A program made the position numbers and the translations under genes. From Escherichia coli (GTDB lineage Bacteria > Pseudomonadota > Gammaproteobacteria > Enterobacterales > Enterobacteriaceae), in NCBI RefSeq assembly GCF_013315695.1, contig NZ_CP054353.1: a DNA stretch of 64,000 bases, one strand, 5' to 3'. The number at the start of each line of letters is the position of its first letter. Positions within the stretch are counted from its first letter, which is position 1. This document shows, one piece after another, positions 6,163 to 52,158 of this stretch. The notes beneath the pieces are model-generated. The model worked only from the letters and a program-made list of their open reading frames with translations. It searched no databases and had not been told where the DNA came from.

Positions 6163-6246
6163 CTGATAACTCATGCAGGCATCTCAGACGACCCACTGAC
6201 ACTACCGGTGAGTTTAACGATACCTTCCATTTGGCTGGCTCACTTT

Positions 6247-8100
6247 TTATGATGATGCCGGTGCATTTATCTCCAGCACCAGACTTTCTATCTCAACGCC
6301 ATACGCTGCATTTTTGGTAATATCCGTCAGCGTCAGCGCATTCAGCCCCAGTGTCAGACTGTCTTTTATGACCTGGAATGCCGGGCCAGCCACTCCATTC
6401 AGTTTCGGAGTAACCGTGGCACTGCCGGCGGTGAACACCAGCTCCAGCGTCTGCCAGTCGTTACTGTAATTCCCGAACTCGCCCAACTTTGTGTTTCCTG
6501 CTTTCTTGTGATGCATCAGATTCAGTTTGCCGTCTGTGGTCTGGGTGAAGAACGACATCAGGAACGGGTTACCAGTCCCGGTCATCGCCACGACGTCAGG
6601 TAACGCTACATCGGTATACAGATAAATTCCCAGACCGAACTGGTTGTTGGTCAGTGCGCCTGACAGTCGAAACTTACAGCTCAGTCTGCCACCCCGTGTC
6701 AGCAGGGAGACTGCGTCATCCACCGGGCGCGTCAGGGACCAGGCTTTATTGCTCTGCTTGGTGATCTTAAATACACCATCTGACAACTGAATTCCGCCAT
6801 TCTTAATGCTCCAGCCCTGCGCAGCAGCGTCTCCGGCTGTCGGCAACAGGGAGATTGTGCGTATGGATGCATCTTCAGACGGCCCCGATGGCGTGTCGCC
6901 GCCGGGCGAGGGTTTGATTTCCGGTGCCTTACCACTAATGAAGGCTAAGGTGCGACCGGCTACGTTCAGAATAGCAGTTGCCATACGATCGGGAATAATG
7001 CCACGACGCGCCCATGAGCTGAAATGCGTCGGGCGATTTGATGATACCCAGTTTTTGTTCGTTCGGGATGCCGAACCGTAATAACCAGACCCGGCAATAT
7101 CAGGATCTTCTGACGGGTTGTTTGTCGGTGTATTAACTCCGCTACCATCGGTCATAAAGGGAACAAAATAAATCTGCTGGGATTCTTTACCTTTATATGC
7201 ACCATATACCACTTCATATTGCGTACCGTGTTCTTGTTTCCACGCGTATGTCGTGTCGCCACAAATCCAGGGGACTGATGCCGGACTTCCACCGTGACAC
7301 TGCGCCGCCAGCCCGGCAAGGTCAGCACGGAACTGCTGTACCATTGCAAGAAATGCTGCTGGCTGCTGGGCGTAACTGGCATTCGTCATATCGAATTCCC
7401 CCTGCATCCAGCATATCGCCAGCAAAACGTTTTTCGGGTTTTTCTGCAATGCTGCCTTCGTGCGGAAAAGCAGATCCTGATATAACGGCTTACCCACTCC
7501 CCAGCGAGCCGAATCCTGACTGGCTCCCGTGGACTCGCTGAATGTCCCCTCCGTGCCCTGGGTGAATGCCGAACCACCACGACAGCATGGTACCAGCAGG
7601 ATCCCCGCATTATTAGGGATATACGGAAGCAGTTTTTTGGCAATATGTAAGCCCTGTCCGACACAGCCGTACTGCCCTTTGCTCAGGTCAGCCCGGGGAT
7701 GGTTAATCGTACTCATATCCTGAACATCATGCAGACAATGGTCAGCAGGAATGATGTCGTTAAATACGCATACTTCACCACCGGGAGTCACTGTGTTACG
7801 ACGGGCCAGTTGCTTAATGCGCGGATGGGGCGCATCGTATGAATCCGGAAGCGGAAGCCCTTCACCGTAAGCCATGGCATTGGATTGCCCGGCCAGTACG
7901 ATGACGTAGTACCACTCCGGCTCAGTTGCACCACTGACGACCACATCACCTTCTGCTGCAATCGCCTGCATCAGGGTATAAGGGGTTATGGCCACCGGAC
8001 TACCAAACGGCTGCCAGCCCTCCTTCAGTTTTTGTGTCAGTCGTTTCGCAAGGTCTGACGGCGATGCCGCCCTGACCACGTCATAGTGTTTAAATGCCAT
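6247..8100 (-). CDS. prophage sialate O-acetylesterase-like SGNH hydrolase (NanS-p-like)
   Basis: 617-aa product; LAGQSNAMAYGEG block typical of SASA/SGNH esterases; GGGAGGA SD 5 nt upstream; position between tRNA genes and holin as in Stx-type lambdoid phages. Confidence 0.65.
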   Translation of the reverse strand: MAFKHYDVVRAASPSDLAKRLTQKLKEGWQPFGSPVAITPYTLMQAIAAEGDVVVSGATEPEWYYVIVLAGQSNAMAYGEGLPLPDSYDAPHPRIKQLARRNTVTPGGEVCVFNDIIPADHCLHDVQDMSTINHPRADLSKGQYGCVGQGLHIAKKLLPYIPNNAGILLVPCCRGGSAFTQGTEGTFSESTGASQDSARWGVGKPLYQDLLFRTKAALQKNPKNVLLAICWMQGEFDMTNASYAQQPAAFLAMVQQFRADLAGLAAQCHGGSPASVPWICGDTTYAWKQEHGTQYEVVYGAYKGKESQQIYFVPFMTDGSGVNTPTNNPSEDPDIAGSGYYGSASRTNKNWVSSNRPTHFSSWARRGIIPDRMATAILNVAGRTLAFISGKAPEIKPSPGGDTPSGPSEDASIRTISLLPTAGDAAAQGWSIKNGGIQLSDGVFKITKQSNKAWSLTRPVDDAVSLLTRGGRLSCKFRLSGALTNNQFGLGIYLYTDVALPDVVAMTGTGNPFLMSFFTQTTDGKLNLMHHKKAGNTKLGEFGNYSNDWQTLELVFTAGSATVTPKLNGVAGPAFQVIKDSLTLGLNALTLTDITKNAAYGVEIESLVLEINAPASS

Positions 8101-20017: not shown

Positions 20018-20588
20018 TTCACCCTCCTGAGGGTTGGTAATTAAGGAGTTCTCCACGGGTCAGGTGGAGTGCGTGCGCCGGACACGGGTGAGCATCCGGC
20101 ACTGACAGCTTACTGAAAGGATATGTCCCTGAAAAGTCAGGGCATAACGCGAAAGCGCACGGCGAAATTGGTCTCTCTGTACGGTGTCGTTAAATTTAGT
20201 TCGACCGTGCGCTTCCGGTTGTGGCACTCCGCGAAATGGCGCGGCGGTAAGTATGGCTGGGGTTTCCTCCATTGCTCCAGAAAATGCACCGGGTTGTCAG
20301 GTTGACCATACGCTTAAGTGACAACCCCGCTACAACGCCCTCTGTTATCAATTTTCTGGTGACATTTGGCGGTATCAGTTTTACTCCGTGACTGCTCTGC
20401 CGCCCTTTTTAAAGTGAATTTTGTGATGCGGTGAATGCGGCTATGCGCACGCGGAACAGTTAAAGCAGTAAGGCGGTATTTTACGGGCGTAACGAGCATC
20501 AACTAACCCGGCGTTAATTGTTAACTGGTTAACGTCACCTGGAGGCACCAGGCACTGCATCACAAAATTCATTGTTGAGGACGCGATA

Positions 20589-20777
20589 ATGGAAACGTTA
20601 TTACCAAACGTTAATACGTCTGAAGGTTGTTTTGATATTGGTGTTCTGCTCAGTAACCGGGAGTTTACTGAAGATGCCATTAATATGAGGAAATATGAGC
20701 CTTATCTGCTCAATGATAATTCCATACTTTCCCGAATTGCTCTTCTTGAACTTGGTATTTTCGGAGAACGTCAATGA
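20589..20777 (+). CDS. hypothetical small protein (62 aa)
   Basis: AT-rich ORF with GAGGA upstream; stop overlaps next start (ATGA). Confidence 0.4.
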   Translation: METLLPNVNTSEGCFDIGVLLSNREFTEDAINMRKYEPYLLNDNSILSRIALLELGIFGERQ

Positions 20778-20962
20778 CTTCAGCATTTGCACTGATGATG
20801 ACGGTTTTTCTTATAACGGGTGAATCACAGAATGTGATTACCGGAATTTATGCAAGTAAAGAATCCTGCCTCCAGGCAAGAGACGAGCAAAAAATTTCTG
20901 GTGAATGCCTCCCGCTAAAAAAAGTATCGCTGTACCTGAATAACGAAACACCGGCTGGATAA
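20774..20962 (+). CDS. hypothetical small protein (62 aa) with N-terminal hydrophobic segment
   Basis: Translationally coupled to the preceding ORF; N-terminus MTSAFALMMTVFLITG is signal/TM-like. Confidence 0.4.
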   Translation: MTSAFALMMTVFLITGESQNVITGIYASKESCLQARDEQKISGECLPLKKVSLYLNNETPAG

Positions 20963-21057
20963 CCCTCCAGCCATATTAACACCATACCAACGGATTAAAA
21001 ATGCCAGCAATGGCAGGGATTCGTTCACCCTGAAATCTGTAATGAGGTTAAAACAAA

Positions 21058-23529
21058 ATGAGTAAGGTCTTTATTTGCGCTGCTATTCCTGATGAACAGG
21101 CCATAAAAGAAGATAGCGCTGTTGCGGTGGCCACTGCCATTGAAGCTGGTGATGAGCGTCGCGCACGCGCAAAATTTCATTGGCAATTTCTGGAGCAATT
21201 CCCTGCAGCTCAGGACTGCGCTTATAAATTTATTGTCTGTGAGGATAAACCCGGCATACCCCGCCCTGCCCTCGATTCCTGGGATGCTGAATATATGCAG
21301 GAAAACCGCTGGGATGAGGAGTCTGCTTCCTTTGTCCCGGTTGAGACTGAATCCGATCCGATGAACGTCACTTTTGACAAGCTGGCCCCTGAAGTACAGA
21401 ACGCTGTCATGGTTAAGTTCGACACATGTGAAAACATCACCGTTGATATGGTTATTAGCGCACAGGAATTGTTGCAGGAAGACATGGCAACATTCGACGG
21501 ACATATCGTTGAAGCGTTGATGAAAATGCCAGAAGTTAACGCCATGTATCCGGAGCTTAAGCTGCATGCCATCGGGTGGGTTAAGCATAAATGTAAGCCT
21601 GGTGCCAAATGGCCCGAAATTCAGGCAGAGATGCGCATCTGGAAAAAACGTCGCGAAGGTGAACGTAAGGAAACCGGAAAATACACGTCTGTTATTGATC
21701 TCGCCCGCGCCAGAACCAATCAACAGCACAGTGAAAATTCAACAGGAAAAATCAGCCCGGTCATTGCTGCCATTCATCGCGAATACAAGCAGACATGGAA
21801 AACACTGGATGACGAACTGGCCTACGCTCTCTGGCCTGGTGATGTGGATGCCGGAAACATTGACGGCAGCATCCATCGCTGGGCAAAAAATGAAGTTATC
21901 GACAACGACCGCGAAGACTGGAAGCGTATCTCGGCATCAATGCGCAAACAGCCTGATGCCCTTCGCTACGACCGCCAAACTATTTTTGGCCTTGTCCGTG
22001 AGCGTCCGATCGACATTCACAAAGATCCCGTAGCACTGAACAAATATATCTGCGAATACCTGACGACAAAGGGCGTGTTTGAGAATGAAGAAACAGACCT
22101 GGGCACTGTTGATGTTCTCCAGTCATCAGAAACACAAACTGATGCAGTGGAAACTGAGGTATCTGATATCCCAAAAAATGAAACCGCGCCGGAAGCTGAA
22201 CCATCTGTAGAGCGTGAGGGGCCGTTCTATTTCCTCTTCGCAGATAAGGACGGAGAAAAATGCGGTCGCGCAAACAAACTTTCTGGTCTGGATAAGGCAC
22301 TGGCTGCTGGCGCCACTGAAATCACAAAAGAAGAATATTTTGCCCGAAAAAATGGCACATACACGGGCTTACCGCAAAATGTAGATACCGCTGAAGATTC
22401 AGAACAACCAGAGCCGATAAAAGTTACCGCTGACGAAGTAAACAAAATTATGCAGGCAGCCAATATCAGCCAGCCTGACGCCGATAAGTTGCTTGCTGCA
22501 TCACGTGGTGAATTTGTTGAAGGGATTAGTGACCCGAATGATCCGAAATGGGTTAAGGGGATCCAGACCCGCGATTCTGTGAACCAGAACCAGCATGAAT
22601 CGGAACGGAACTACCAAAAAGCGGAACAAAACAGCCCAAATGCGTTACAAAACGAGCCAGAAACGAAACAGCCTGAACCAGTGGCGCAACAGGAAGTGGA
22701 AAAAGTCTGCACCGCCTGCGGTCAGACCGGCGGCGGCAACTGCCCTGATTGTGGCGCGGTGATGGGCGACGCAACATACCAGGAAACATTCGATGAAGAG
22801 TATCAGGTTGAAGTTCAGGAAGATGATCCGGAGGAAATGGAAGGCGCTGAACATCCACACAAGGAGAACACTGGCGGCAATCAGCATCACGATAGCGATA
22901 ATGAAACTGGCGAGACGGCAGATCGCTCAATTAAGGTGAACGGTCATCACGAAATCACATCCACCAGCAGGACGTGTGACCATCTAATGATCGACCTTGA
23001 AACCATGGGAAAAAATCCTGATGCCCCGATCATCTCAATAGGTGCAATATTTTTCGATCCGCAAACCGGAGATATGGGACCGGAATTTAGTAAGACTATC
23101 GATCTGGAAACTGCTGGCGGAGTCATTGATCGGGACACCATTAAATGGTGGCTTAAGCAATCACGCGAAGCGCAATCTGCCATTATGACCGATGAAATCC
23201 CGTTAGATGATGCACTGTTACAATTGCGGGAATTTATCGACGAAAACTCCGGTGAATTTTTTGTTCAGGTTTGGGGAAATGGAGCCAACTTCGACAACAC
23301 GATTTTGCGCCGTTCATACGAACGGCAGGGGATCCCCTGCCCGTGGCGTTACTACAACGATCGCGATGTACGCACAATCGTTGAGCTGGGGAAAGCCATA
23401 GACTTCGATGCCAGAACGGCTATTCCATTCGAAGGTGAGCGCCATAATGCACTTGATGACGCCCGTTACCAGGCAAAATACGTTTCAGTTATCTGGCAAA
23501 AACTGATCCCGAGTCAGGCTGATTTTTAA
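21058..23529 (+). CDS. prophage exonuclease (823 aa) with C-terminal DnaQ-like DEDDh 3'-5' exonuclease domain
   Basis: C-terminal motifs MIDLETMG (Exo I), GNGANFDNTIL (Exo II), HNALDDARY (Exo III); central zinc-ribbon-like CTACGQTGGGNCPDCG; long acidic region; early-left operon position of recE. Confidence 0.6.
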   Translation: MSKVFICAAIPDEQAIKEDSAVAVATAIEAGDERRARAKFHWQFLEQFPAAQDCAYKFIVCEDKPGIPRPALDSWDAEYMQENRWDEESASFVPVETESDPMNVTFDKLAPEVQNAVMVKFDTCENITVDMVISAQELLQEDMATFDGHIVEALMKMPEVNAMYPELKLHAIGWVKHKCKPGAKWPEIQAEMRIWKKRREGERKETGKYTSVIDLARARTNQQHSENSTGKISPVIAAIHREYKQTWKTLDDELAYALWPGDVDAGNIDGSIHRWAKNEVIDNDREDWKRISASMRKQPDALRYDRQTIFGLVRERPIDIHKDPVALNKYICEYLTTKGVFENEETDLGTVDVLQSSETQTDAVETEVSDIPKNETAPEAEPSVEREGPFYFLFADKDGEKCGRANKLSGLDKALAAGATEITKEEYFARKNGTYTGLPQNVDTAEDSEQPEPIKVTADEVNKIMQAANISQPDADKLLAASRGEFVEGISDPNDPKWVKGIQTRDSVNQNQHESERNYQKAEQNSPNALQNEPETKQPEPVAQQEVEKVCTACGQTGGGNCPDCGAVMGDATYQETFDEEYQVEVQEDDPEEMEGAEHPHKENTGGNQHHDSDNETGETADRSIKVNGHHEITSTSRTCDHLMIDLETMGKNPDAPIISIGAIFFDPQTGDMGPEFSKTIDLETAGGVIDRDTIKWWLKQSREAQSAIMTDEIPLDDALLQLREFIDENSGEFFVQVWGNGANFDNTILRRSYERQGIPCPWRYYNDRDVRTIVELGKAIDFDARTAIPFEGERHNALDDARYQAKYVSVIWQKLIPSQADF

Positions 23530-26750: not shown

Positions 26751-27290
26751 ATGAAGCAGTTTCTTGATTTTTTACCGCTGGTTGTCTTTTTCGCGTTCTA
26801 CAAGATTTATGACATCTATGCGGCTACTGCGGCGCTCATCGTCGCCACGGCGATTGTGCTTATCTATAGCTGGGTTCGCTTTCGTAAGGTTGAGAAGATG
26901 GCCCTGATCACTTTTGTTCTGGTGGTCGTCTTCGGTGGCTTAACGCTGTTCTTCCACAATGATGAGTTTATTAAATGGAAGGTTACTGTCATTTATGCCC
27001 TGTTTGCGGGTGCCCTGTTAGTCAGTCAATGGGTGATGAAAAAGCCGCTAATTCAGCGGATGCTGGGTAAAGAACTCACCCTGCCGCAATCGGTATGGTC
27101 GAAGCTGAATCTGGCCTGGGCTGTTTTCTTTATCCTTTGCGGCCTGGCAAACATCTACATCGCATTCTGGCTGCCGCAAAATATTTGGGTCAACTTTAAA
27201 GTCTTTGGCCTGACCGCCCTTACCTTAATCTTCACATTGTTAAGCGGTATCTATATCTACCGCCACATGCCGCAGGAAGATAAATCCTAA
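26751..27290 (+). CDS. yciB: inner membrane protein YciB (intracellular septation protein family)
   Basis: 179-aa multi-TM ORF. Confidence 0.9.
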
Positions 27291-27394
27291 CCAGACTGCC
27301 AGTCCTTCGGGGCTGGCGCTGTATCTCCTCTGTTCTCCTCAGGAAAATCATAGTAGCATCGCGCCTGTGATTTTCCTTTTAAGTCGGTTTTACC

Positions 27395-27793
27395 ATGTCT
27401 ACAACACATAACGTCCCTCAGGGCGATCTTGTTTTACGTACTTTAGCCATGCCCGCCGATACCAATGCCAATGGTGACATCTTTGGTGGTTGGTTAATGT
27501 CACAAATGGATATTGGCGGCGCTATTCTGGCGAAAGAAATTGCCCACGGTCGTGTAGTGACCGTGCGGGTTGAAGGAATGACTTTCTTACGACCGGTTGC
27601 GGTCGGCGATGTGGTGTGCTGCTATGCACGCTGTGTCCAGAAAGGGACGACATCGGTCAGCATTAATATTGAAGTGTGGGTGAAAAAAGTCGCGTCTGAA
27701 CCCATCGGGCAACGCTATAAAGCGACAGAAGCATTATTTAAGTATGTCGCGGTTGATCCTGAAGGAAAACCTCGCGCCTTACCTGTTGAGTAA
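27395..27793 (+). CDS. yciA: acyl-CoA thioesterase YciA
   Basis: 132-aa hotdog-fold-like ORF. Confidence 0.9.
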   Translation: MSTTHNVPQGDLVLRTLAMPADTNANGDIFGGWLMSQMDIGGAILAKEIAHGRVVTVRVEGMTFLRPVAVGDVVCCYARCVQKGTTSVSINIEVWVKKVASEPIGQRYKATEALFKYVAVDPEGKPRALPVE

Positions 27794-27796
27794 TAG

Positions 27797-27824
27797 TCAA
27801 AAGCCTCCGGTCGGAGGCTTTTGA
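27797..27824. terminator. bidirectional terminator between yciA and tonB
   Basis: Perfect 14-bp palindrome GTCAAAAGCCTCCG/CGGAGGCTTTTGAC between convergent genes. Confidence 0.8.
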
Positions 27825-27832
27825 CTTTATGC

Positions 27833-28549
27833 TTACTGAATTTCGGTAGTGCCGTTAATTTTAAACAGGATATTCACCACAATCCCACTGCCTGGCTTAC
27901 CCGGCTCATAACGCCATCTGCGCATCGCATTTTTCACTTCACGCTCAAACATGTTCGCAGGCTTGGCTGAGAGGATTTGTACGTTATCCACGCGACCATC
28001 TGGCGTGACATCAAATTTAACTTTAACCTGCCCTTCAATGCGCAATGCCTGTGCTCGTGCCGGATACTGCGGCTGATTACGGCTTAATGCGCGTGGTCCT
28101 GAAGCCACACTGGTAACCGGCTTGCTGGTTGCAGCCGTTGCCGTACTTGATGTCGGGCGCGCGGGTGCCGTATTTTCAAACGGTGATGCCGGACGCGACT
28201 CTACGGGTTTGACATCGCGTTTTGGCTGCTCCACCTTTTTCACCGGCTTCGGTTTTGGCTTAGGTTTCGGCTTCGGCTTTTCAATGACCACCGGAGCTTC
28301 TTTTGGCGGTTCAGGGATCGGCTCAGGTTCCGGTTCTGGCTCTACCACCGGCTCCGGTGGTGGTTGAACGGCTTGTGGCGGTTCGAGATCCGCTGGCGCA
28401 ACCATCGTGACAGAAATCGGCTGCGCGGGCGCAGGTAGTTCAATAACCTGATGTACCGAGGTATAGAGCAAACCCGCCACAACAGCACCATGAATGCAGA
28501 CCGAAAGTAACGTCGGCCAGGGGAAGCGGCGAGGTAAATCAAGGGTCAT
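27833..28549 (-). CDS. tonB: TonB energy transducer
   Basis: Product [28 protein letters not shown]... with (EP)n and (KP)n repeat tract; ORF-track ORF extends to 28600. Confidence 0.95.
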
Positions 28550-28772: not shown

Positions 28773-29069
28773 GTGTTGTATGTTATTTACGCTCAAGACA
28801 AAGCTGATAGCCTCGAAAAACGCCTTTCCGTTCGTCCGGCACATTTAGCACGTTTACAGTTACTGCATGATGAAGGTCGTTTGTTGACCGCCGGTCCAAT
28901 GCCAGCAGTAGACAGTAACGATCCAGGGGCTGCGGGATTTACTGGCTCAACCGTTATTGCTGAATTTGAGTCGCTGGAAGCAGCTCAGGCCTGGGCCGAT
29001 GCTGACCCGTACGTAGCGGCAGGAGTCTATGAACACGTTTCAGTGAAACCATTTAAGAAAGTGTTTTGA
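28773..29069 (+). CDS. yciI: YciI-like protein
   Basis: GTG start 5 nt after AAGGAG; product [38 protein letters not shown]... Confidence 0.85.
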
Positions 29070-29221
29070 ATAAATTAAATATTATTTAAATTCAAAGCAA
29101 TAACGAAAGACAGTCAACATAATCAATAATAAAGGGCGCATTTAAGTACACATTAATCTAAGCGCCCCTTTTTTTTCGCTACGACTTATACTTTCAGTCT
29201 GACATCTGGCTGGAGGTTTCT

Positions 29222-29479
29222 ATGTGCGGACGCTTTTCACAGTCAATGACGCGTGAAGACTATCTCGCCCTTCTCGCAGATGAAGTCGAGCAAGACATTC
29301 CATATGACCCTGAACCGATCGGACGTTTCAACGTTGCGCCAGGCACCAAAGTTCTGCTTCTGAGCGAACGTGACGAGAAACTCCATCTTGATCCAGTTTT
29401 CTGGGGATACGCCCCGGATGGTGGGATAAACCTGGATTTTTACACATACCAAAGACAGATTAGATACTCTACTAATTAG
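29222..29479 (+). pseudogene. 5' fragment of an SRAP/YedK-family gene (about 70 codons), truncated
   Basis: MCGRFSQSMTREDYLALLADEVEQDIPYDPEPIGRFNVAPGTKVLLLSERDEKLHLDPVFWGYAP then unrelated AT-rich sequence and a stop; full-length family members are about 220 aa. Confidence 0.6.
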
Positions 29480-29587
29480 ATTTTAAACTCATGATTAGTA
29501 AGAGAGACTACCATGATTTATTTAACCAAAATGTCATTTTGTGATATTCTGCATAAAAGTTCATTATTCTAGAGATAGAGCATTAAT

Positions 29588-31381
29588 ATGAGTATCGGTT
29601 TGAGCAAAGTCGTTACAAGATATAAAAACTTAAAGTTGAAATCATATGTTTTCGACATTGTCAACGTTATGTTTTTATTGTACTTATTTTGTTTTCTAAA
29701 TCAGTCAATAGTTATCATAGGAAATATTGAACCGCCTAAAGAGTTAATTGGTGCAATATTGAATTTCATCTGGCGTTCATCCCCCATTTTGTTTATTTAT
29801 TTGTTATTTAGAATAATAAACATTCCAATTTTTCTATGTTCTTATTTATCAGGCATCGCAATTATAACATTGATGTTTGTGAACAGTACTAAAATGGCGT
29901 TAACCGGTGAGCCTTTATCATTTAATGACATTGTTTCTGGATTCAATTTGAGTGTCGCAGGAAAATACCTCAACTTATCATCCATTACTTACTCTGTCGC
30001 TATTCTAATTGGCGCAATAATCTCAATCCTACTTAGCAAAAAAACGGTCACAACAAGAAAAAATTATATATCGTTATTTCTTTTAATTATCATTACGATC
30101 CCCTTTTCATTCTACCCCTATATTGGAACCATTTTTAGCCCTAACAATAGGATTTCTGAAATCATAAACTCCAGCGCGAACAACTTAAATATAAAATATA
30201 TTTACTGGAATTGGTCTCAAAATATTGGCGTTAATGGCTTGCCAATGCATATAATACAAACAAGTGTCAGAAAATCTGTACCACATGCAACTGATGCAGA
30301 ACAATTAAGATATTTAGATGAAAAAAGATCTTTAGTATCCACTCATATAAAAAATAAAACCATTATTTATGTTTTATGTGAATCATGTTGGTATGATAAA
30401 AAAAACTTCCGAGAAAATTTCAAACCTGTTATTGATGAAGGTTACAGTGAATTACGGGCCATCTCACCAGTTTACGGTGGAGGTACCGCAAATGCCGAAT
30501 TTGAAATGCTGACAGGACTACCAAGTAATTCAGATAAAATATCAGGAATCATCTATCAAGAATATTCAGATGCATTCAAACCAAAAGTTGACGCATTACC
30601 TAATGCCCTGAAAAACAAAGGCTATATTACTTTCGCAGCACATAATTACCAAGCAGACTTTTGGTATAGGAATAAAATTTACCCTAAATTTGGATTTGAT
30701 AGATTTGATAGCATTATTAATATGGGAGATTTACCACCAGAGTATAGCAGTATTAAAAAACCATGGCAGTGGCAACCTGATGACTACCTGCTTTACAATG
30801 CAGCATTAAAAGCCATCCAAAATGCAGGAAACAAAGATATTTTTGTACATTTGATCACTATGTCAACTCATGGTCCTTATCAACACATTAATGATTATGG
30901 TGAAGGTGTTTATACCTATGAGATTAATGAGGCAGTCAAAAGATTCGTTCAATTTTCACAGCAAGTAGAAAAAATAGATCCAAATGCTGTAATCGTCTTT
31001 TACGGTGACCATAAACCACCACTAAATAAATATTTCGTCGAAAATGGGGTGCTACCAAGTAATATTTTCAACAAAATCGGAGAAGAAAAAGATGAAGATT
31101 TCGTCTTTAAAATGAGCACAACCCCACTCGATTTTGGTGATGTTCCTGTGCTTATTAAATCAAATGATAAAGACGCCATTAAAAAATTCATAACCGACGC
31201 CAATGGAAAACCTTTTTTCTGTGTATCTTCATTAGTTGATAAACATTTCATTCAATCTGGATTGGTATCATTTAATCACAACGCAAAGCATGTCTGTGAA
31301 AACAGTGATAACTTTAATTATGATAAGTTAATTAACATGACCCCGTCGTGGATTTATTCAATGTCATTATTTCACGATTAG
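29588..31381 (+). CDS. sulfatase-superfamily membrane protein (LTA-synthase / phosphoethanolamine-transferase-like), AT-rich
   Basis: 597-aa product; N-terminal multi-TM region, C-terminal domain with YVLCESCW and STHGPYQH motifs; codon usage strongly AT-biased. Confidence 0.6.
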   Translation: MSIGLSKVVTRYKNLKLKSYVFDIVNVMFLLYLFCFLNQSIVIIGNIEPPKELIGAILNFIWRSSPILFIYLLFRIINIPIFLCSYLSGIAIITLMFVNSTKMALTGEPLSFNDIVSGFNLSVAGKYLNLSSITYSVAILIGAIISILLSKKTVTTRKNYISLFLLIIITIPFSFYPYIGTIFSPNNRISEIINSSANNLNIKYIYWNWSQNIGVNGLPMHIIQTSVRKSVPHATDAEQLRYLDEKRSLVSTHIKNKTIIYVLCESCWYDKKNFRENFKPVIDEGYSELRAISPVYGGGTANAEFEMLTGLPSNSDKISGIIYQEYSDAFKPKVDALPNALKNKGYITFAAHNYQADFWYRNKIYPKFGFDRFDSIINMGDLPPEYSSIKKPWQWQPDDYLLYNAALKAIQNAGNKDIFVHLITMSTHGPYQHINDYGEGVYTYEINEAVKRFVQFSQQVEKIDPNAVIVFYGDHKPPLNKYFVENGVLPSNIFNKIGEEKDEDFVFKMSTTPLDFGDVPVLIKSNDKDAIKKFITDANGKPFFCVSSLVDKHFIQSGLVSFNHNAKHVCENSDNFNYDKLINMTPSWIYSMSLFHD

Positions 31382-31731
31382 TATCTAGAAAATAATTGTA
31401 ATAAATCATCATTAATTATGTAGACGCCTAAAATTAGGCATCTACATTTTATTAGAAAAGAGGTTGTCCTGACTAGGTTGTGGAAATGTGCATCGCATAA
31501 ATCAAGGCTATAGAGCATGAAAGTGCGTTCTTCCCCCTCTACCATTGATAAATATTTAAAAGTGCTCACGCTGGATTCGATCCAGGCATTAGCATCTTTG
31601 AGTGAGAATTCCCAGTTAACTTTGCTCAACCCCTGAACAAATCGCTGTGTAGTGACGGTCTTCCGGCCATTCGGCTCTTGCTGTATCGAAGAATACCAGG
31701 CTATTTCAATATCGCTGCGTCGTGGCATCAT
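31378..31731 (-). CDS. hypothetical protein (117 aa), possibly a gene fragment
   Basis: ATG pair with GAGGG upstream; divergent from the dinI-like gene; ORF-track ORF extends to 31977. Confidence 0.35.
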   Translation of the reverse strand: MMPRRSDIEIAWYSSIQQEPNGRKTVTTQRFVQGLSKVNWEFSLKDANAWIESSVSTFKYLSMVEGEERTFMLYSLDLCDAHFHNLVRTTSFLIKCRCLILGVYIINDDLLQLFSRY

Positions 31732-31771
31732 TACGCCCTCTCTTGAATACCGGATAAAAACACAGTATAAA

Positions 31772-31791
31772 TACTGTATATACACCCAGTA
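31772..31791. promoter_or_regulatory. LexA (SOS) box upstream of the dinI-like gene
   Basis: TACTGTATATACACCCAGTA: CTGT-N8-CCAG, one mismatch from the CTGT-N8-ACAG core; overlapping palindrome ACAGTATAAATACTGT just upstream. Confidence 0.6.
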
Positions 31792-31806
31792 AAGAGGCAA
31801 TGAGCA

Positions 31807-32034
31807 ATGTTCGTGGAACTCGTTTATGGCAAAAGGAATTTTGATGGACTGCCCGGTGCAAAAGATATCATTCTGGGCGAGTTGACCAAGAGGGTTCACC
31901 GGATTTTCCCCGGCGCTGATGTCCGGGTTAAACCGATGATGACATTGCCGGCGATCAACACTGACGCCAACAAGCATGAGAATGAACAGATAAGCCGTAC
32001 TGTTCAGGAAATGTTTGAAGAGACTGATATGTAG
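31807..32034 (+). CDS. DinI-like protein
   Basis: 75-aa product MFVELVYGKRNFDGLPGAKDIILGELTKRVHRIFPGADVRVKPMMTLPAINTDANKHENEQISRTVQEMFEETDM; AGAGG RBS; LexA box upstream. Confidence 0.7.
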   Translation: MFVELVYGKRNFDGLPGAKDIILGELTKRVHRIFPGADVRVKPMMTLPAINTDANKHENEQISRTVQEMFEETDM

Positions 32035-32122
32035 CTGTTTTCAGATTAAACGCCTTGAACCGTCACACTGATTAAGTACAATCCGGCGTGGTTGCGGCTT
32101 CCAGATTATAAGAATGATTCCC

Positions 32123-32550
32123 TTACTCACTTTTCAGCGCATTCACTTCTTCTCGTAATTCACTGAGTTCGTTCATTAGTACCAGAATCGCTTCATGATG
32201 CAACGCTGCCGCAACGCCGTAAGTATCTGGAGAGAGTACTCCTTCCACCATAGTTCCATCAGGAAGTTGACGATCACCTCCCTCAGTTACTGCCTGGGGG
32301 AAGATTTTCTTAACATCCTGCGCGATAAACCCAATCCCCCATTGTCCGGTATCTTTTCGCGTCCAGGAACAACCTTTTAGCATTTCCATCTTACTGAGCG
32401 GGTCTCCAATTCTGGACACTCCATCTTTCAGGCGGCCATCTGAATTCGGAACCCATGCTCCAGGCGCTACAGCGTTACCAGTTGATTTCATAAAGCTCCA
32501 TGTGGTTCCTGAGCTTGCGTTTGCTACCTGAATATTCCCTGATAAAGAAC
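32123..32550 (-). pseudogene. C-terminal fragment of a phage tail-fibre protein (intramolecular chaperone-type domain), 5' end removed by IS insertion
   Basis: ...GQWGIGFIAQDVKKIFPQAVTEGGDRQLPDGTMVEGVLSPDTYGVAAALHHEAILVLMNELSELREEVNALKSE; the frame runs upstream into the IS inverted repeat. Confidence 0.6.
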
Positions 32551-33473
<923 letters not shown>

Positions 33474-33602
33474 GTATCGGTAGAAAAAAGAAACTTTACC
33501 AGCCTGACTGATCCTTGCGTTCAGCCCATGAGAATCTGAAATGGTTTCGATATCATCTCGTTTCTTGCCCAGGGACTTCCTGAGCTTTGTGTCGGTAATC
33601 AT
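33474..33602 (-). pseudogene. N-terminal fragment (43 codons) of a P4-type integrase, cut by the IS element
   Basis: [43 protein letters not shown] resembles the DUF4102-type N-terminus of P4-family integrases; frame runs into the IS right end. Confidence 0.5.
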
Positions 33603-34105
33603 TGAATGTGTACACATCTGGCTTGCGAGTACGCAAAAGTGTACACAAAACTCGTTGCTCAAAGATACCCGCAATGTAACACTTGTACTCGAAGTGTGAT
33701 GGCTTAGGGGCTGAAAGGCAGATGGCGTAAGGGTTCAACGTAACAGAACGTTTTTATGCGAAATTCTTCGAAATGGTCTGAATGACATTTTAAGAAAGTG
33801 TTCTGAATAGAAATTCAATATTTAAGGGCACGGTTTTTGCAACCGTGTTCTTGTTTGGCCTTTCCTTATAGGTCGGTCAGTGCATTCACCACCACAAGCA
33901 GATAATAACTTTATCTGTATTTCTTTATATGATGTGAACATATTCAGGAAAATGCCCTTTCCTGACGCAGAGTTGCTCACTCAAAACCTTTGATTACTGC
34001 GGATAAAGTCATCTACTATTGTTTAACACATTCACGCGCTGCATGTATGTTCAGAAAATGTGCACGTTGAGATAATTAAACAAAATTGTGGTTACAGAGG
34101 TATCA

Positions 34106-45054: not shown

Positions 45055-47730
45055 ATGGCTGTTACTAATGTCGCTGAACTTAACGCACTCGTAGAGCGTG
45101 TAAAAAAAGCCCAGCGTGAATATGCCAGTTTCACTCAAGAGCAAGTAGACAAAATCTTCCGCGCCGCCGCTCTGGCTGCTGCAGATGCTCGAATCCCACT
45201 CGCGAAAATGGCCGTTGCCGAATCCGGCATGGGTATCGTCGAAGATAAAGTGATCAAAAACCACTTTGCTTCTGAATATATCTACAACGCTTATAAAGAT
45301 GAAAAAACCTGTGGTGTTCTGTCTGAAGACGACACTTTTGGTACCATCACTATCGCTGAACCCATCGGTATTATTTGCGGTATCGTTCCGACCACTAACC
45401 CGACTTCAACTGCTATCTTCAAATCGCTGATCAGCCTGAAGACCCGTAACGCCATTATCTTCTCCCCGCACCCGCGTGCAAAAGATGCAACCAACAAAGC
45501 GGCTGATATCGTTCTGCAGGCTGCTATCGCTGCCGGTGCTCCGAAAGATCTGATCGGCTGGATCGATCAACCTTCGGTTGAACTGTCTAACGCACTGATG
45601 CACCACCCAGACATCAACCTGATCCTCGCGACTGGTGGTCCGGGCATGGTTAAAGCCGCATACAGCTCCGGTAAACCAGCTATCGGCGTAGGCGCGGGCA
45701 ACACTCCGGTTGTTATCGATGAAACTGCTGATATCAAACGTGCAGTTGCATCTGTACTGATGTCCAAAACCTTCGACAACGGCGTAATCTGTGCTTCTGA
45801 ACAGTCTGTTGTTGTTGTTGACTCTGTTTATGACGCAGTACGTGAACGTTTCGCAACCCACGGCGGCTATCTGTTGCAGGGTAAAGAGCTGAAAGCTGTT
45901 CAGGACGTTATCCTGAAAAACGGTGCGCTGAACGCAGCTATCGTTGGTCAGCCAGCCTATAAAATTGCTGAACTGGCAGGCTTCTCTGTACCAGAAAACA
46001 CCAAGATTCTGATCGGTGAAGTGACCGTTGTTGATGAAAGCGAACCGTTCGCACATGAAAAACTGTCCCCAACTCTGGCAATGTACCGCGCTAAAGATTT
46101 CGAAGACGCGGTAGAAAAAGCAGAGAAACTGGTTGCTATGGGCGGTATCGGTCATACCTCTTGCCTGTACACTGACCAGGATAACCAACCGGCTCGCGTT
46201 TCTTACTTCGGTCAGAAAATGAAAACGGCTCGTATCCTGATTAACACCCCGGCTTCTCAGGGTGGTATCGGTGACCTGTATAACTTCAAACTCGCACCTT
46301 CCCTGACTCTGGGTTGTGGTTCCTGGGGTGGTAACTCCATCTCTGAAAACGTTGGTCCGAAACACCTGATCAACAAGAAAACCGTTGCTAAGCGAGCTGA
46401 AAACATGTTGTGGCACAAACTTCCGAAATCTATCTACTTCCGCCGTGGCTCCCTGCCAATCGCGCTGGATGAAGTGATTACTGATGGCCACAAACGTGCG
46501 CTCATCGTGACTGACCGCTTCCTGTTTAACAATGGTTATGCTGATCAGATCACTTCCGTACTGAAAGCAGCAGGCGTTGAAACTGAAGTCTTCTTCGAAG
46601 TAGAAGCTGACCCGACCCTGAGCATCGTTCGTAAAGGTGCAGAACTGGCAAACTCCTTCAAACCAGACGTGATTATCGCGCTGGGTGGTGGTTCCCCGAT
46701 GGACGCCGCGAAGATCATGTGGGTTATGTACGAACATCCGGAAACTCACTTCGAAGAGCTGGCGCTGCGCTTTATGGATATCCGTAAACGTATCTACAAG
46801 TTCCCGAAAATGGGCGTGAAAGCGAAAATGATCGCTGTCACCACCACTTCTGGTACAGGTTCTGAAGTCACTCCGTTTGCGGTTGTAACTGACGACGCTA
46901 CTGGTCAGAAATATCCGCTGGCAGACTATGCGCTGACCCCGGATATGGCGATTGTCGATGCCAATCTGGTTATGGACATGCCGAAGTCCCTGTGTGCTTT
47001 CGGTGGTCTGGACGCAGTAACTCACGCCATGGAAGCTTATGTTTCTGTACTGGCATCTGAGTTCTCTGATGGTCAGGCTCTGCAGGCGCTGAAACTGCTG
47101 AAAGAATATCTGCCAGCGTCCTACCACGAAGGATCTAAAAATCCGGTAGCGCGTGAACGTGTTCACAGTGCAGCAACTATCGCGGGTATCGCGTTTGCGA
47201 ACGCCTTCCTGGGTGTATGTCACTCAATGGCGCACAAACTGGGTTCCCAGTTCCATATTCCGCACGGTCTGGCAAACGCCCTGCTGATTTGTAACGTTAT
47301 TCGCTACAACGCGAACGACAACCCGACCAAGCAGACTGCATTCAGCCAGTATGACCGTCCGCAGGCTCGCCGTCGTTATGCTGAAATTGCTGACCACCTG
47401 GGTCTGAGCGCACCGGGCGACCGTACTGCTGCTAAGATCGAGAAACTGCTGGCATGGCTGGAAACGCTGAAAGCTGAACTGGGTATTCCGAAATCTATCC
47501 GTGAAGCTGGCGTTCAGGAAGCAGACTTCCTGGCGAATGTGGATAAACTGTCTGAAGATGCATTCGATGACCAGTGCACCGGCGCTAACCCGCGTTACCC
47601 ACTGATCTCCGAGCTGAAACAGATTCTGCTGGATACCTACTACGGTCGTGATTATGTAGAAGGTGAAACTGCAGCGAAAAAAGAAGCCGCTCCGGCTAAA
47701 GCTGAGAAAAAAGCGAAGAAATCCGCTTAA
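45055..47730 (+). CDS. adhE: bifunctional aldehyde/alcohol dehydrogenase
   Basis: 891-aa product [35 protein letters not shown]...; aldehyde dehydrogenase N-domain plus iron-type alcohol dehydrogenase C-domain. Confidence 0.97.
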
Positions 47731-47771
47731 TCAGTAGCGCTGTCTGGCAACATAAACGGTCCCTTCTGGGG

Positions 47772-49197
47772 TAATGCCAGTCAGTTAAGCAACTGACTGG
47801 CTCTTTTTCGGGGCTGTGGGGTATTTCCAGGGCCTCTCCTTTACCACTCTCGGGAAGGCCCTTTCCCTTCTTGTCGGTAATTTCACAAGTTGTCCCATAC
47901 TTGCAAGATCGCGCATCAGCTCCGGTATACGTCCCGGTGAAGCGCCCTGCAATGTCATCAGCATTCTCATCACCATTCCGCATGATTCTGAGAAACTCAG
48001 TTGATTCGGCCAGTAACCTTTCAGATGTTCCGCCATTTTAATCATCTGATATCTCACCAGATTATAAGCCAGTAAGACACCCCACAGCTCTTGCTCCACA
48101 AGCTCCGGTTTTTTACTTCTCAGCGTCAGCCTGCTCAGTTGCATCGTCTGTTTTATCTCCCTGTATCCCAGTTCGATTTCCCAGCGATGACTGTACAGAT
48201 CCGCCATTTCTCCTCCGGGGAAGCGCATGGCGTCCGTCATCGACGTCAGCAGATGGCAGACTTTTCCTTTGCGCGTCACGGTCAGCAGGCGGGCTGTCAC
48301 TTCATTTCCCAGTCCCGGCCACTTTTTTCGTGCCTGCGGGCTGGTTTTCAGCTTCACCAGATGATCGCCTTTACCCAGTTTTCTGATCTCTTCATATTGC
48401 GCTCCCTTTCTGAGAGGTATCATCCAGTGGCGGTGTTCTCCCGCCAGGCTCCAGGCATTTAACAGTCCCAGTGAGTAATAACCTTTATCCATTAACGTCA
48501 GAGTGTTATCGCCGGTTTGTTCTATAAGTTGCTCAGCAAGCTCATTTTCGCTGTTCTTCATCGTGCCGAAGGCTGCAGCCGTCAGCAGATGGCTGGTCAG
48601 TTCCATCTGGCAGACCATTTTGACCTGCGGGTAGAGCGCCGGGTTCCCGGCATGTGTCTGGCGGGGGAAGGCTGCATCGTTCTCTGGTGTATCCGGTGTG
48701 CGCCAGAACACACCATCGATGGCCAGCAGGGTCAGGCCGCACCAGTGCGGATGCGGCGTGGCGTTATGCCAGAGCTGCGCTGTTTTCGTGAACACGCGGC
48801 GGACAGCCTCACTTCCCAGGCGCTGGCGGGCCTGAATAACGGCACTGGGGGCAACGAAGGGGCGATTGCCCGGCAGCATGATGTCCAGGCGATTCACAAT
48901 CTGGTGAAGAGGTTCTTTACGCTCAAGCGCCATGCCAACAATACACCAGACCATCATTTCGAGGGGAAGACGGCGCTTGCGTAGCGTTACAGTACCTGAT
49001 TCGGCAAGGCAACGAGAGATGAGTTCGGGGTCGAGGTAATCCCCCAGAGAAGTCAGTGGGTTACGCAGAGAATCGTAACGGGATACCAGATCAAGAGCCT
49101 GTCCAATGTGCATAAAAAAATCCGGAAACAAGTGAGCGTTTCCGGATTCTTACACAGCCACTGGATCGGTCAACTGATCCTTAACTGATCGGCATTA
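47772..49197 (-). mobile_element. IS4 insertion sequence (1426 bp) with 12-bp target-site duplication
   Basis: Terminal inverted repeats TAATGCCAGTCAGTTAAG... (47772-) and ...CTTAACTGATCGGCATTA (-49197); TCCCTTCTGGGG present on both flanks (47760-47771 and 49198-49209). Confidence 0.9.
47785..49113 (-). CDS. insG: IS4 transposase
   Basis: 442-aa product [40 protein letters not shown]...; ORF-track ORF adds 6 upstream codons. Confidence 0.9.
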
Positions 49198-49470
49198 TCC
49201 CTTCTGGGGCCGTTTTTTTGTTTTACCCAAAGCAACTTTCCCATAAACCGACAGCATTTGCCTTCATCATATTTACGGCGATGTATAACGCCTACACACA
49301 GCGATATTGTACTTTACAGGTTACAAGTCAACGTCACTGTAAAAGCGCTCTGTGAGGGGTATAGTGGCGTTAAAGAACTGTCGAGAAGGGTATATACACC
49401 GGATGAAGTGAGTAAAACGAACTGACAGGATAAAAGCGCCCTGCTCACCCTGTCAGTAAAGAAATTCTTA

Positions 49471-50088
49471 TTAATCGTGGCGATGCCTTTCCTGAATAGC
49501 CGTTAATGAGCCGACTTCTAACGCTTCTTTATAGTGTTTACGGCATACAGAAACGTAGCGTTCATTACCACCAATAACCACCTGCTCACCTTCGTTATAA
49601 GGTCTGCCTGCTTGATCAAGACGCAGCACCATGCTTGCTTTGCGGCCACAAAAACAGATGGTTTTTAATTCAACCAGTTTGTCGGACCATGCCAGTAAGT
49701 ATTGGCTGCCAATAAATAACTCACCTCGAAAATCGGTACGTAAACCATAACAAAGTACGGGTATATCGAGTTGATCGACAACCTCCGATAATTCATATAC
49801 TTGTTGTCTGGTTAAAAACTGGCATTCATCAACCAGTACGCAATGAATTGCCTGCTGTTCATGTTCCGCACGAATCTCATCAAATAATGATGAATTTTGG
49901 TTAAATAATTTTGCAGGCGATGACAAACCTATACGCGAGCTGACTTTCCCGGCACCAAAGCGATCATCAATTTCTGCCGTATATACGACAGTGCGCATGC
50001 CGCGTTCCTGGTAATTGTATGAAGATTGCAACAATGCTGTAGACTTACCCGCATTCATTGCGGAATAGTAGAAATATAGCTGTGCCAT
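49471..50088 (-). CDS. tdk: thymidine kinase
   Basis: 205-aa product [30 protein letters not shown]... Confidence 0.95.
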
Positions 50089-50691
50089 CAGCCACAGGCC
50101 CTCAATGATATGAATTAAAGTTGGCTGGAGTTTATCATAATTCGTCAGTTTTACAGCTCAACAGTATGCACAGAAGTGGTATATGCGTTCTCCCTTACGA
50201 AGCCTTGCATAATCCTTCTGAGCTATCATTACAACTGCCTCGCTTGTTATAAGCGGGTAAATGACTGCTGGTAACTATTCACAATCTTTAACCTGTTGCG
50301 CAAGTAATAGCCCTCTGTTGACCTCCTGGAGATAGTGCAATACTAAGTCCCTGCTCTTATTGCGACTGTTCTACTTTTCATCATTCGCTTAATAGGGAAT
50401 TCTCGTAAACACGACTAATACAGAAGACTGAAAGGTCGTCAGCCTACGATAATCTCCCCATAAAATGTGACATGAATCAGGAAGTTTTAACCTCACGTGC
50501 TGCGAAATCATCGGTGCAAATAGGGCTATATGCCGCGTCTTTTCTGGCTAATTTTATGAAAAGATATTTATTGGCGGCACAAAATAAAGAACAATTTTGA
50601 ATTCCTTACATTCCTGGCTATTGCACAACTGAATTTAAGGCTCTATTATTACCTCAACAAACCACCCCAATATAAGTTTGAGATTACTACA

Positions 50692-51105
50692 ATGAGCGAA
50701 GCACTTAAAATTCTGAACAACATCCGTACTCTTCGTGCGCAGGCAAGAGAATGTACACTTGAAACGCTGGAAGAAATGCTGGAAAAATTAGAAGTTGTTG
50801 TTAACGAACGTCGCGAAGAAGAAAGCGCGGCTGCTGCTGAAGTTGAAGAGCGCACTCGTAAACTGCAGCAATATCGCGAAATGCTGATCGCTGACGGTAT
50901 TGACCCGAACGAACTGCTGAATAGCCTTGCTGCCGTTAAATCTGGCACCAAAGCTAAACGTGCTCAGCGTCCGGCAAAATATAGCTACGTTGACGAAAAC
51001 GGCGAAACTAAAACCTGGACTGGCCAGGGCCGTACTCCAGCTGTAATCAAAAAAGCAATGGATGAGCAAGGTAAATCCCTCGACGATTTCCTGATCAAGC
51101 AATAA
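50692..51105 (+). CDS. hns: nucleoid-associated protein H-NS
   Basis: 137-aa product [41 protein letters not shown]...TWTGQGRTP... Confidence 0.97.
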
Positions 51106-51130
51106 TCTTTTGTAGATTGCACTTGCTTAA

Positions 51131-51158
51131 AAATCCCGCCATCGGCGGGATTTTTTAT
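51131..51158 (+). terminator. hns intrinsic terminator
   Basis: AATCCCGCC-ATCG-GCGGGATT hairpin followed by a T-run. Confidence 0.8.
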
Positions 51159-51195
51159 TGTCCGGTTTAAGACAATTTAATAAGAATAAGCTATA

Positions 51196-51228
51196 AAAAA
51201 ACGGCGTCGATTGCTCAACGCCGTTTCG
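51196..51228 (-). terminator. galU intrinsic terminator
   Basis: Minus-strand hairpin AACGGCGT...ACGCCGTT followed by a T-run. Confidence 0.7.
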
Positions 51229-51249
51229 TGGATAACACCGATACGGATG

Positions 51250-52158
51250 TTACTTCTTAATGCCCATCTCTTCTTCAAGCCAGGCTTTAAATTCCGAGCC
51301 AAGGGTGTTATGACGAATACCGTATTCAACGAAGGCCTGCATGTAACCTAATTTATTACCGCAGTCATGGCTCTTCCCTTTCATATGATAGGCTTCCACC
51401 GTTTCTTTTTCGATCAGCATATCAATTGCGTCGGTGAGCTGAATTTCATCACCAGCACCCGGAGGGGTTTTTGCCAGCAACGGCCAAATATCCGCGCTAA
51501 GAACGTAACGACCCACAATAGCGAGATTAGACGGCGCAACATCCGCTTTTGGTTTTTCAACCACGCCAACCATCGGTACGCTTTCACCCGGCGCTAATTC
51601 AACGCCTTTGCAATCCACAACGCCATATGCGGTCACATCAGCAACCGGTTCAACCATGATCTGGCTATGACCCGTTTCATCAAAGCGGCGGATCATCTCT
51701 GCCAGGTTATCCTGTGACAAATCGGATTCATATTCATCCAGAATAACGTCAGGCAAAATAACAGCCACAGGTTCATCACCCACTACCGGGTGAGCACACA
51801 ATACCGCGTGTCCCAGGCCTTTCGCCAGCCCCTGACGAACTTGCATAATAGTCACGTGCGGCGGACAAATAGACTGCACTTCATCAAGCAGTTGACGTTT
51901 TACACGTTTTTCCAGCATTGCTTCCAGTTCAAAACTGGTATCAAAGTGGTTTTCAATAGAGTTTTTAGATGAGTGAGTAACCAGCACAATTTCAGTAATG
52001 CCAGCCGCAATACATTCATTCACGACGTATTGAATTAATGGCTTATCGACAAGTGGCAGCATCTCTTTCGGGATGGCTTTCGTCGCCGGCAACATCCTGG
52101 TTCCTAATCCCGCAACGGGGATAACGGCTTTTTTGACTTTCGTATTAATGGCAGCCAT
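51250..52158 (-). CDS. galU: UTP--glucose-1-phosphate uridylyltransferase
   Basis: 302-aa product [35 protein letters not shown]... Confidence 0.95.

Follow-up and report, generated by a model that had tools for sequence, protein, structure and literature searches.

In the E. coli genome fragment analyzed here (a 64,000-nt stretch, referred to below as the window), the short spacer between the convergent genes adhE and tdk is occupied by a complete insertion sequence (IS). Its presence raises the question of what this element is, why it sits at this particular place, and how long it has been there. An earlier note, written from the sequence alone, had identified an IS4 copy in the 3′ flank of adhE, and all that it described in the sequence was confirmed at the stated coordinates; the position of the element proved to be more informative than the note had assumed.

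An intact IS4 inside the predicted adhE terminator

The element starts with TAATGCC and finishes with GGCATTA, with 16 of 18 positions matching between its terminal inverted repeats. A search of the entire 64-kb window for degenerate inverted repeats of this kind returned these two ends only, with 0.05 such hits expected by chance. On both sides, the element is flanked by TCCCTTCTGGGG; the two copies are identical, show no further extension, and represent the only two occurrences of this sequence on either strand of the window. By chance, a given 12-mer would turn up again at one specified position with a probability of ~6e-8. The earlier note had reported IS4 ends with an identical 12-bp duplication on each side, and both the coordinates and the repeats were reproduced by a script. 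Of the two features on which that reading had been staked, the repeats are indeed identical and the transposase frame is uninterrupted. The proposed simple transposition also agrees with the presence of a single element, a clean duplication, and native adhE and tdk flanks, and the suggested comparison with uninserted genomes gave the expected result: the window without the IS and one repeat copy is the empty site of strain 7/2. An assembly artefact was dismissed, given the native flanks, the clean repeats, and the same junction in independent assemblies, as was a composite transposon, given a single element between native flanks with clean repeats. The coordinates of all features are listed in Table 1.

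Table 1. Features of the IS4 insertion and its surroundings (positions in the window)
Feature	Coordinates	Strand	Basis or comment
adhE, 891-aa ORF (context)	45055..47730	+	annotated adhE in all related genomes
Left half of the split predicted adhE terminator: AAACGG, then duplicated core (TCCC stem top, TTCT loop, GGGG)	47754..47771	+	
Left 12-bp target-site duplication, TCCCTTCTGGGG	47760..47771	no strand	identical to 49198-49209
IS4, complete, 1426 bp	47772..49197	- (that of the transposase gene)	full-length DNA identity to annotated IS4 copies
Terminal inverted repeat at the transposase 3′ end, TAATGCCAGTCAGTTAAG	47772..47789	+	
Inward-facing hairpin (47776-47801, 11 pairs) followed by TCTTTTTCGG	47776..47811	+	top plus-strand terminator-like site in the scan
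Transposase ORF, 442 codons plus stop (ATG 49113, stop 47785-47787)	47785..49113	-	Pfam, DDE and YREK motifs
Hairpin TCCGGAAAC-N8-GTTTCCGGA, extendable to at least 11 bp, then U7	49114..49148	-	own RNA fold
Sigma-70-like promoter candidate: TTGACC, 16-nt spacer, TG, AAGAAT	49146..49173	-	consensus match only
Terminal inverted repeat at the transposase 5′ end, TAATGCCGATCAGTTAAG	49180..49197	-	
Right 12-bp target-site duplication, TCCCTTCTGGGG	49198..49209	no strand	identical to 47760-47771
Right half of the split predicted adhE terminator: duplicated core, CCG, T7, G, TTTT	49198..49224	+	
tdk (context)	49471..50088	-	annotated tdk in related genomes

The transposase frame is complete and free of internal stops, as the note had claimed for its 442 codons; a TTG at position 49131, six codons upstream of the ATG, is an alternative start that would give a protein of 448 aa and is used by both the ORF list and RefSeq/PGAP. 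The protein matches the Pfam domains Nterm_IS4 (E = 3e-33, profile positions 2-95 of 95) and DDE_Tnp_1 (E = 8.7e-32). De Palmenaer et al. (2008, PMC2266710) define the IS4 family by a D(60-110)D(100-150)E triad, a Y(2)R(3)E(6)K motif, and a single ORF for the transposase; for the IS4 subgroup, their Table 1 gives 10-13 bp direct repeats, -AATR ends, and a length between 1400 and 1650 bp. In the window, the triad consists of D133, D209, and E314, separated by 75 and 104 residues, both within the family ranges; the YREK motif is intact (Y307-R310-E314-K321, residues 307-321); and a single ORF covers most of the element. The subgroup assignment follows from the length of 1426 bp, the TAATGCC ends (N-A-A-T-G), the 12-bp repeat, and the IS4-type N-terminal domain. 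A phmmer sequence search against solved structures gave no match at E <= 0.01, which means that the Tn5 transposase is too distant for phmmer.

At the DNA level, the 1426 bp are 100% identical to many copies in complete E. coli genomes that are annotated as ‘IS4-like element IS4 family transposase’. The K-12 insG copy has the same length, 16/18 terminal repeats, one 442-codon ORF, and a duplication in the same range (11-13 bp), and shows 99.72% DNA identity, differing at 4 of 1426 nt and at 2 of 442 aa. The two represent different alleles, the window carrying the commoner WP_000483766.1, which is the commonest IS4 allele, and K-12 carrying WP_000483767.1; otherwise, nothing substantial distinguishes them. 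The element is thus IS4 itself, intact. Known since the 1970s, IS4 is the element on which its family was founded; in K-12, it encodes InsG. It is present in 2686 of 5426 complete E. coli genomes, with the median genome having it at one place and the richest at 32. Judging by its intact motifs, by the identical copies at many sites, and by these numbers of places per genome, the copy in the window is plausibly transposition-competent, as the note had supposed.

The stop codon of adhE ends at 47730, with the direct repeat following after 29 bp and the IS after 41 bp, and the tdk stop at 49471 lies 273 bp from the far IS end, which bears out the location given in the note, 41 bp downstream of adhE and between convergent genes. 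That description has to be amended in one respect, as the element sits not merely downstream of adhE but inside the predicted adhE terminator hairpin. Nor is the site incidental, being a recurrent hot spot of IS4-group insertion. The predicted adhE intrinsic terminator has the form AAACGGTCCC-TTCT-GGGGCCGTTT followed by T7. In the uninserted genome L002, a terminator scan called it as AAACGGTCCCTTCTGGGGCCGTTT plus TTTTGTTTTA, with 10 pairs, 6 of them GC, and a 4-nt loop, followed by TTTTGTTTT. The empty-site hairpin begins 24 bp past the adhE stop, shows the GC-rich stem and T-run expected of an intrinsic terminator, and folds as RNA at -18.4 kcal/mol (z = -5.1), with none of 200 shuffled sequences folding as well. 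After deletion of the IS and one repeat, the window reads ...CATAAACGGTCCCTTCTGGGGCCGTTTTTTTGTTTT..., a sequence that strain 7/2 contains uninterrupted (399 bp at 99.7% identity) and that O157:H7 also has, apart from a few substitutions.

The 12 duplicated bases correspond to the stem top and loop of this hairpin, which means that the IS4 cut was symmetrical with respect to the dyad. The predicted adhE terminator is now separated into two halves 1.4 kb apart, and a scan of the window no longer calls it. The suggestion in the note that the insertion could affect adhE termination was, if anything, understated, the 12-bp core being the top of the predicted hairpin itself. Such an arrangement would be produced by the entry of a complete IS4 into the apex of the terminator through the DDE cut-and-paste mechanism of its family, with a 12-bp staggered cut centered on the hairpin loop. 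Given the A-run that precedes it, the hairpin could plausibly serve the convergent tdk, too, as a weak terminator. A literature search found no paper on adhE transcripts ending at this hairpin, and an Rfam scan of positions 47000-51500 found nothing within the IS or the adhE-tdk spacer.

Target choice and recurrent occupancy of the adhE hairpin

Empty sites were reconstructed from sampled IS4 copies, resulting in a set of nine independent sites: adhE and eight others, namely, an IS-rich region of strain 2452, a site in NCTC86 that recurs near glcA, ygeA, yihL/typA, feaB/tynA, aroA/ycaL, bamD/raiA, and the K-12 insG site. At all nine, the duplicated core of 11-13 bp is preceded by an A-run at a distance of 0-5 bp and followed by a T-run at 3-4 bp, although at two sites one of the runs is only two bases long. 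In most cases, the duplication lies at the tip of a GC-rich palindrome, as expected from the anatomy of a terminator. Under a strict test that required a fold of -12 kcal/mol or stronger together with a left-hand AAA and a right-hand TTT, 5 of 8 sites (adhE included) passed, compared to 0.6% of 3000 random 44-mers from the window (binomial P = 4e-10). On this reading, the adhE site was chosen rather than hit at random: IS4 and its close relatives favor an A-run, 3-5 bp, an 11-13 bp core that is duplicated, 3-4 bp, and a T-run, the same anatomy as that of terminators made of a hairpin and a T-run, which are often bidirectional.

What exactly is recognized at these sites is less certain. IS4 could sense structure or termination (a cruciform, a stalled polymerase, or some feature of replication forks at terminators) instead of the A-run and T-run arms. 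In favor of such a mechanism, a fold of -12.7 kcal/mol or below was obtained for six of the nine sites (for five of these, between -15 and -22), and every newly sampled site is located just past the 3′ end of a gene. However, ygeA, where the insertion is within the coding sequence, the strain 2452 site, and the K-12 insG site fold only weakly (-10.1, -5.6, and -8.1 kcal/mol, respectively) and yet retain A- and T-runs ~18-20 bp apart; a hairpin is thus not obligatory for IS4 insertion. An AAA-N20-TTT consensus was reportedly given by Mayaux et al. in 1984, along with an account of IS4 inserted into the pheST attenuator; the N20 spacing is exactly that of the K-12 insG site. Arm specificity is already in the literature, conserved target arms having been described (PMC2266710), and this also speaks against recognition of structure, which we regard as rather improbable, if deserving of some weight. 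From the sequences of these sites, the arms look like the primary target determinant, and the IS4 enzyme may read them rather than terminators as such. There is some resemblance here to the ISs that target REP palindromes (reviewed in PMC1525189): these, too, select extragenic palindromes between genes, where insertions are mostly harmless and similar sites are used repeatedly. Those elements belong mostly to other families and their targets are REP repeats, whereas those of IS4 are unique sites of the A-run/palindrome/T-run type.

The occupancy of the adhE hairpin was surveyed with junction-specific probes in 5426 complete E. coli genomes, a collection that is strongly biased to clinical clones, so that the counts refer to sequenced genomes and not to population frequencies. 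The hairpin is empty in 2198 genomes, contains IS4 in the orientation seen in the window in 189 (by the left-junction count), contains IS4 in the opposite orientation in 1138, and harbors a relic of a different IS4-group element, the K-12-type insZ, in 1885. These four states add up to 5410 of the 5426 genomes, and 59% of all 5426 have an IS4-group element in the hairpin. A census based on the right junction (378 genomes at >=80% coverage) was discarded because the IS and the repeat alone make up 79.4% of the query; its count was also at odds with the four-state sum.

The occupied sites differ in several ways. CE10 and IAI39 carry an IS4 that is identical to the one in the window and is flanked by the same 12 bp but is flipped. 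In EC958 (ST131), the flipped IS4 has 98% identity, an internal deletion of ~270 bp, and a perfect 12-bp repeat, CCCCTTCTGGGG; a partial match had initially suggested an insZ-type relic, an assignment that was rejected when the alignment revealed a decayed true IS4. Among the copies in the orientation of the window, those of ST648, Ecol_881, CLSC36, and WB61 have an 11-bp repeat and two SNPs in the IS, and that of EC1 combines a 12-bp repeat with the K-12 allele of IS4. The existence of two repeat classes, 11 and 12 bp, and of two IS alleles led us to reject a single event as the origin of all 189 genomes in this group. The K-12 insZ pseudogene, which interrupts the same terminator hairpin at the same loop center, is almost identical to IS4 in its terminal 34 bp, corresponding to the IS4 end beside the transposase start. 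The rest of it is unrelated to IS4 in DNA sequence, and it further differs in being shortened (~980 bp), frameshifted, flipped relative to the IS4 of the window, and flanked by a 10-bp repeat. In about 1900-2000 genomes, this relic is single-copy and dead.

Since the orientation cannot be switched with native flanks and repeats kept, and since insZ is a different element, these data require at least three independent insertions; five or six are likely. The adhE hairpin is a recurrent hot spot of the IS4 group. An alternative would be that the element arrived only once or twice, in the distant past, and that repeat length, allele, and decay diverged later by point deletion, gene conversion, or recombination between strains. 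The 11- and 12-bp repeats are indeed distinguished by just one T at the right junction, gene conversion could homogenize IS4 alleles in multicopy genomes, and E. coli recombines, which would allow one insertion to spread across backgrounds. None of these processes accounts for the two orientations, which are separate events given the preserved flanks and repeats, or for the insZ-type element, which shares just 34 bp with IS4, has a 10-bp repeat, and represents a third event. Besides, with other IS4 sites showing the same target anatomy, repeated choice of this hairpin is to be expected. We consider a history without a hot spot unlikely. Selection could also be invoked: the element might be kept for a benefit to the host, through altered 3′ ends of adhE and tdk or regulation in an H-NS region, and be effectively domesticated instead of an active parasite. 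The 59% occupancy and the fixation of a dead, single-copy insZ relic in so many genomes are the observations that such a view would explain, but the 2198 genomes with an empty site do well, the relics decay by frameshifts and deletions as neutral insertions should, and a target preference combined with a harmless spot between convergent genes is a simpler account of the high occupancy. Maintenance by host benefit is therefore very unlikely, and repeated insertion at a preferred target remains the favored explanation.

Age of the insertion

Over ~33 kb in all, the flanks of the window differ by 0.005-0.014% from those of MSB1_4I and by ~0.045% from those of MS 21-1, by 0.5-0.8% from those of ST648 and CE10, and by ~1.5% from those of the empty-site strain 7/2. 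The closest relatives, MSB1_4I and MS 21-1, have the same junction and the same 12-bp repeat as the window, with 1-2 private SNPs within the IS. The insertion thus predates the common ancestor of their lineage, and the description of it in the earlier note as probably recent holds at the level of the lineage but not in the sense of a strain-private event. IS4 occupies 18 places in MSB1_4I and 12 in MS 21-1, indicating that it has been active in this lineage.

An insertion that is very recent and confined to the strain of the window would fit the perfect repeats, the 100% identity of the IS to the commonest allele, and the fact that none of the 5426 genomes matches the right junction at 100%. 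The last point loses its force on inspection: the 99.9% identity of the right junction in MSB1_4I and MS 21-1 is due to the 1-2 SNPs inside the IS, the junction itself being the same. These two genomes, which were inspected directly, share the 12-bp repeat at a flank divergence of only 0.005-0.05%, and they and three further genomes share the orientation. Nor do perfect repeats indicate youth, as they persist in the old, decayed copy of EC958 and are thus a poor clock. A private insertion is largely refuted by these observations, and we regard it as extremely improbable; the insertion would have arisen in an ancestor of the MSB1_4I/MS 21-1 lineage. As a separate observation, the IS4 copies at the adhE site of MSB1_4I and MS 21-1 differ from that in the window by 1-2 SNPs, and gene conversion among the many IS4 copies is possible.

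In sum, we consider it highly probable that IS4 transposed into the apex of the adhE terminator, a preferred target anatomy, in the ancestor of MSB1_4I and MS 21-1; the identity and intactness of the element, its target duplication, the splitting of the predicted hairpin, the repeated use of this site, and the common target anatomy are evident from the sequences, while replacement of the terminator, activity of the element, and escape of its own transposase mRNA from the right-end hairpin are the parts of this reading that we infer.

Candidate terminators carried by IS4 and their implications

Both ends of the element contain hairpins with a potential role in transcription. The one at the left end folds at -19.9 kcal/mol and overlaps the last transposase codons, which are on the opposite strand; its U run comprises just 5 U and is broken by a C. 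This hairpin is a candidate substitute terminator for read-through from adhE, and adhE transcripts would end there, at the hairpin and T-run, ~45-80 nt later than at the empty site. The hairpin at the right end, which was not called by the simple scan, folds at -21.4 kcal/mol (z = -5.8, with no shuffled sequence folding as well) and, together with its U7, is located directly upstream of the transposase ATG, on the strand that read-through from tdk would use. It is a candidate barrier to read-through from outside and a candidate mask of the start codon. The predicted transposase start, at ~49139, falls within the 5′ arm of this hairpin, so that mRNA from the putative transposase promoter would start inside the hairpin and escape it, whereas transcripts coming from outside would contain it. 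Read-through from tdk would be halted at the hairpin and U7 ahead of the ATG. In this way, IS4 would both insulate itself and replace the terminator that it destroyed.

A comparable arrangement exists in IS10 and IS50, two members of the IS4 family, where a hairpin covers the transposase start in outside transcripts and the element's own promoter fires inside the hairpin. The likeness consists in protection from outside transcription, which on the side of IS4 is suggested by its sequence features. The predicted IS4 hairpin is additionally followed by U7 and so resembles a true terminator. IS10 and IS50 also belong to different subgroups and have 9-bp duplications and different ends (PMC2266710).

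These observations raise the possibility that IS4-group elements are terminator-seeking ISs that bring along an inward terminator at each end, swap the split terminator for new ones on both sides, and are thereby insulated, with adhE-tdk as an outstanding hot spot. We put this forward tentatively, as a generalization that has somewhat less than an even chance of being correct. The element itself is already known and is annotated at the same position in related RefSeq genomes, and its behavior matches published descriptions. Literature searches did not find the recurrent use of the adhE hairpin, its 59% occupancy, or replacement terminators at both IS4 ends; no relevant paper was found on insZ with adhE or on IS4 with tdk and adhE, and searches on IS4 target sites and terminators returned papers on other elements only.

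As an element, this copy of an old IS matters little; it is the choice of site that is instructive. The four states of the adhE-tdk hairpin, combined with the 10-, 11-, and 12-bp repeats, offer a cheap lineage marker. Because the site has been hit recurrently, shared IS positions are unsafe as evidence of identity by descent. The 3′ ends of adhE probably differ among E. coli backgrounds, K-12 included, which matters for the mapping of adhE mRNA stability and for engineering of the locus. Finally, the target rule accounts for the harmless build-up of IS4 copies between genes.

IS4-related sequences at the adhE terminator in other genomes

In addition to the window copy, IS4 or an IS4-family relic was found downstream of adhE in several other E. 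coli genomes (see the table). A 10-bp repeat, CCCTTCTGGG, accompanies the insZ pseudogene of K-12. Over the initial 34 bp, insZ displays 97% identity to the IS4 end that adjoins the transposase start; beyond them its DNA is unrelated to IS4. Frameshifted insZ is encoded in ~1900-2000 genomes, in one copy each, and no intact version was seen among the rows sampled.

The IS4 copies in ST648, Ecol_881, CLSC36, and WB61 are flanked by an 11-bp repeat, CCCTTCTGGGG, and have in common two IS SNPs, 425T and 998A (RefSeq protein WP_024181814.1). Two origins are conceivable for this 11-bp class: an insertion event of its own, or the loss of 1 bp where the right end of the IS meets the flank. The EC958 element, which is annotated as frameshifted, is a true IS4 (98% identity) that has undergone an internal deletion of ~270 bp and is still surrounded by perfect 12-bp repeats. 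Because these repeats have outlasted the decay of the element, perfect repeats, such as those that the earlier note took as a sign of a probably recent transposition in the window, are not evidence of recency.

Features of the window and of other E. coli loci (coordinates outside the window are positions within the respective locus)
Feature	Location	Position	Remarks
insZ, IS4-family pseudogene	K-12 (L001)	~3703-4685	adhE terminator hairpin, corresponding to window 47760-47771
IS4	ST648, Ecol_881, CLSC36, WB61 (L010-L013)	junctions 20201 and 21626	orientation as in the window
Decayed IS4	EC958, ST131 (L015)	~20201-21345	orientation opposite to the window IS4
Synteny break	window	~29000-33800
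IS3-family transposase	window	~32590-33470
Truncated integrase fragment	window	~33475-33600	just before kch
frnS sRNA family match (Rfam)	window	51130-51231 (-)	hns-galU gap
IS200C copy	EC1 (L020)	6208-6666	hns-galU gap
RtT sRNA repeats	strain 7/2 (L014)	27237-28080	five in tandem, after tyrT/tyrV

Junction counts and the transposase start

In the whole collection of 5426 complete genomes, the right-junction probe identified 378 genomes (coverage of at least 80%) versus 189 for the left-junction probe. We attribute this discrepancy to probe design, as the IS and the repeat alone already account for 79.4% of the right-junction query.

The classical IS4 transposase (442 aa) starts at the ATG at window position 49113. 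For identical IS4 copies, RefSeq/PGAP assigns the start to an upstream TTG (49131), yielding 448 aa; this codon falls in the loop of the predicted hairpin that precedes the ATG.

Variation elsewhere in the neighborhood

In ST648, CE10, and strain 7/2, kch is adjacent to ompW-yciCBA-tonB-yciI. Relative to these genomes, synteny is broken in the window, which, like MSB1_4I and MS 21-1, carries there prophage remnants (a DinI-like protein and a tail-fiber fragment), an IS3-family transposase, and a truncated integrase fragment. The break is probably a rearrangement mediated by an IS or a prophage.

At 28 bits (E = 0.08), the frnS match falls short of the gathering score, which is 60, and is most likely due to chance. 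RtT repeats after tyrT/tyrV are listed in the annotation of strain 7/2 and in none of the others. With these repeats and the IS200C copy of EC1, the adhE-tdk neighborhood is variable beyond its IS4 state.
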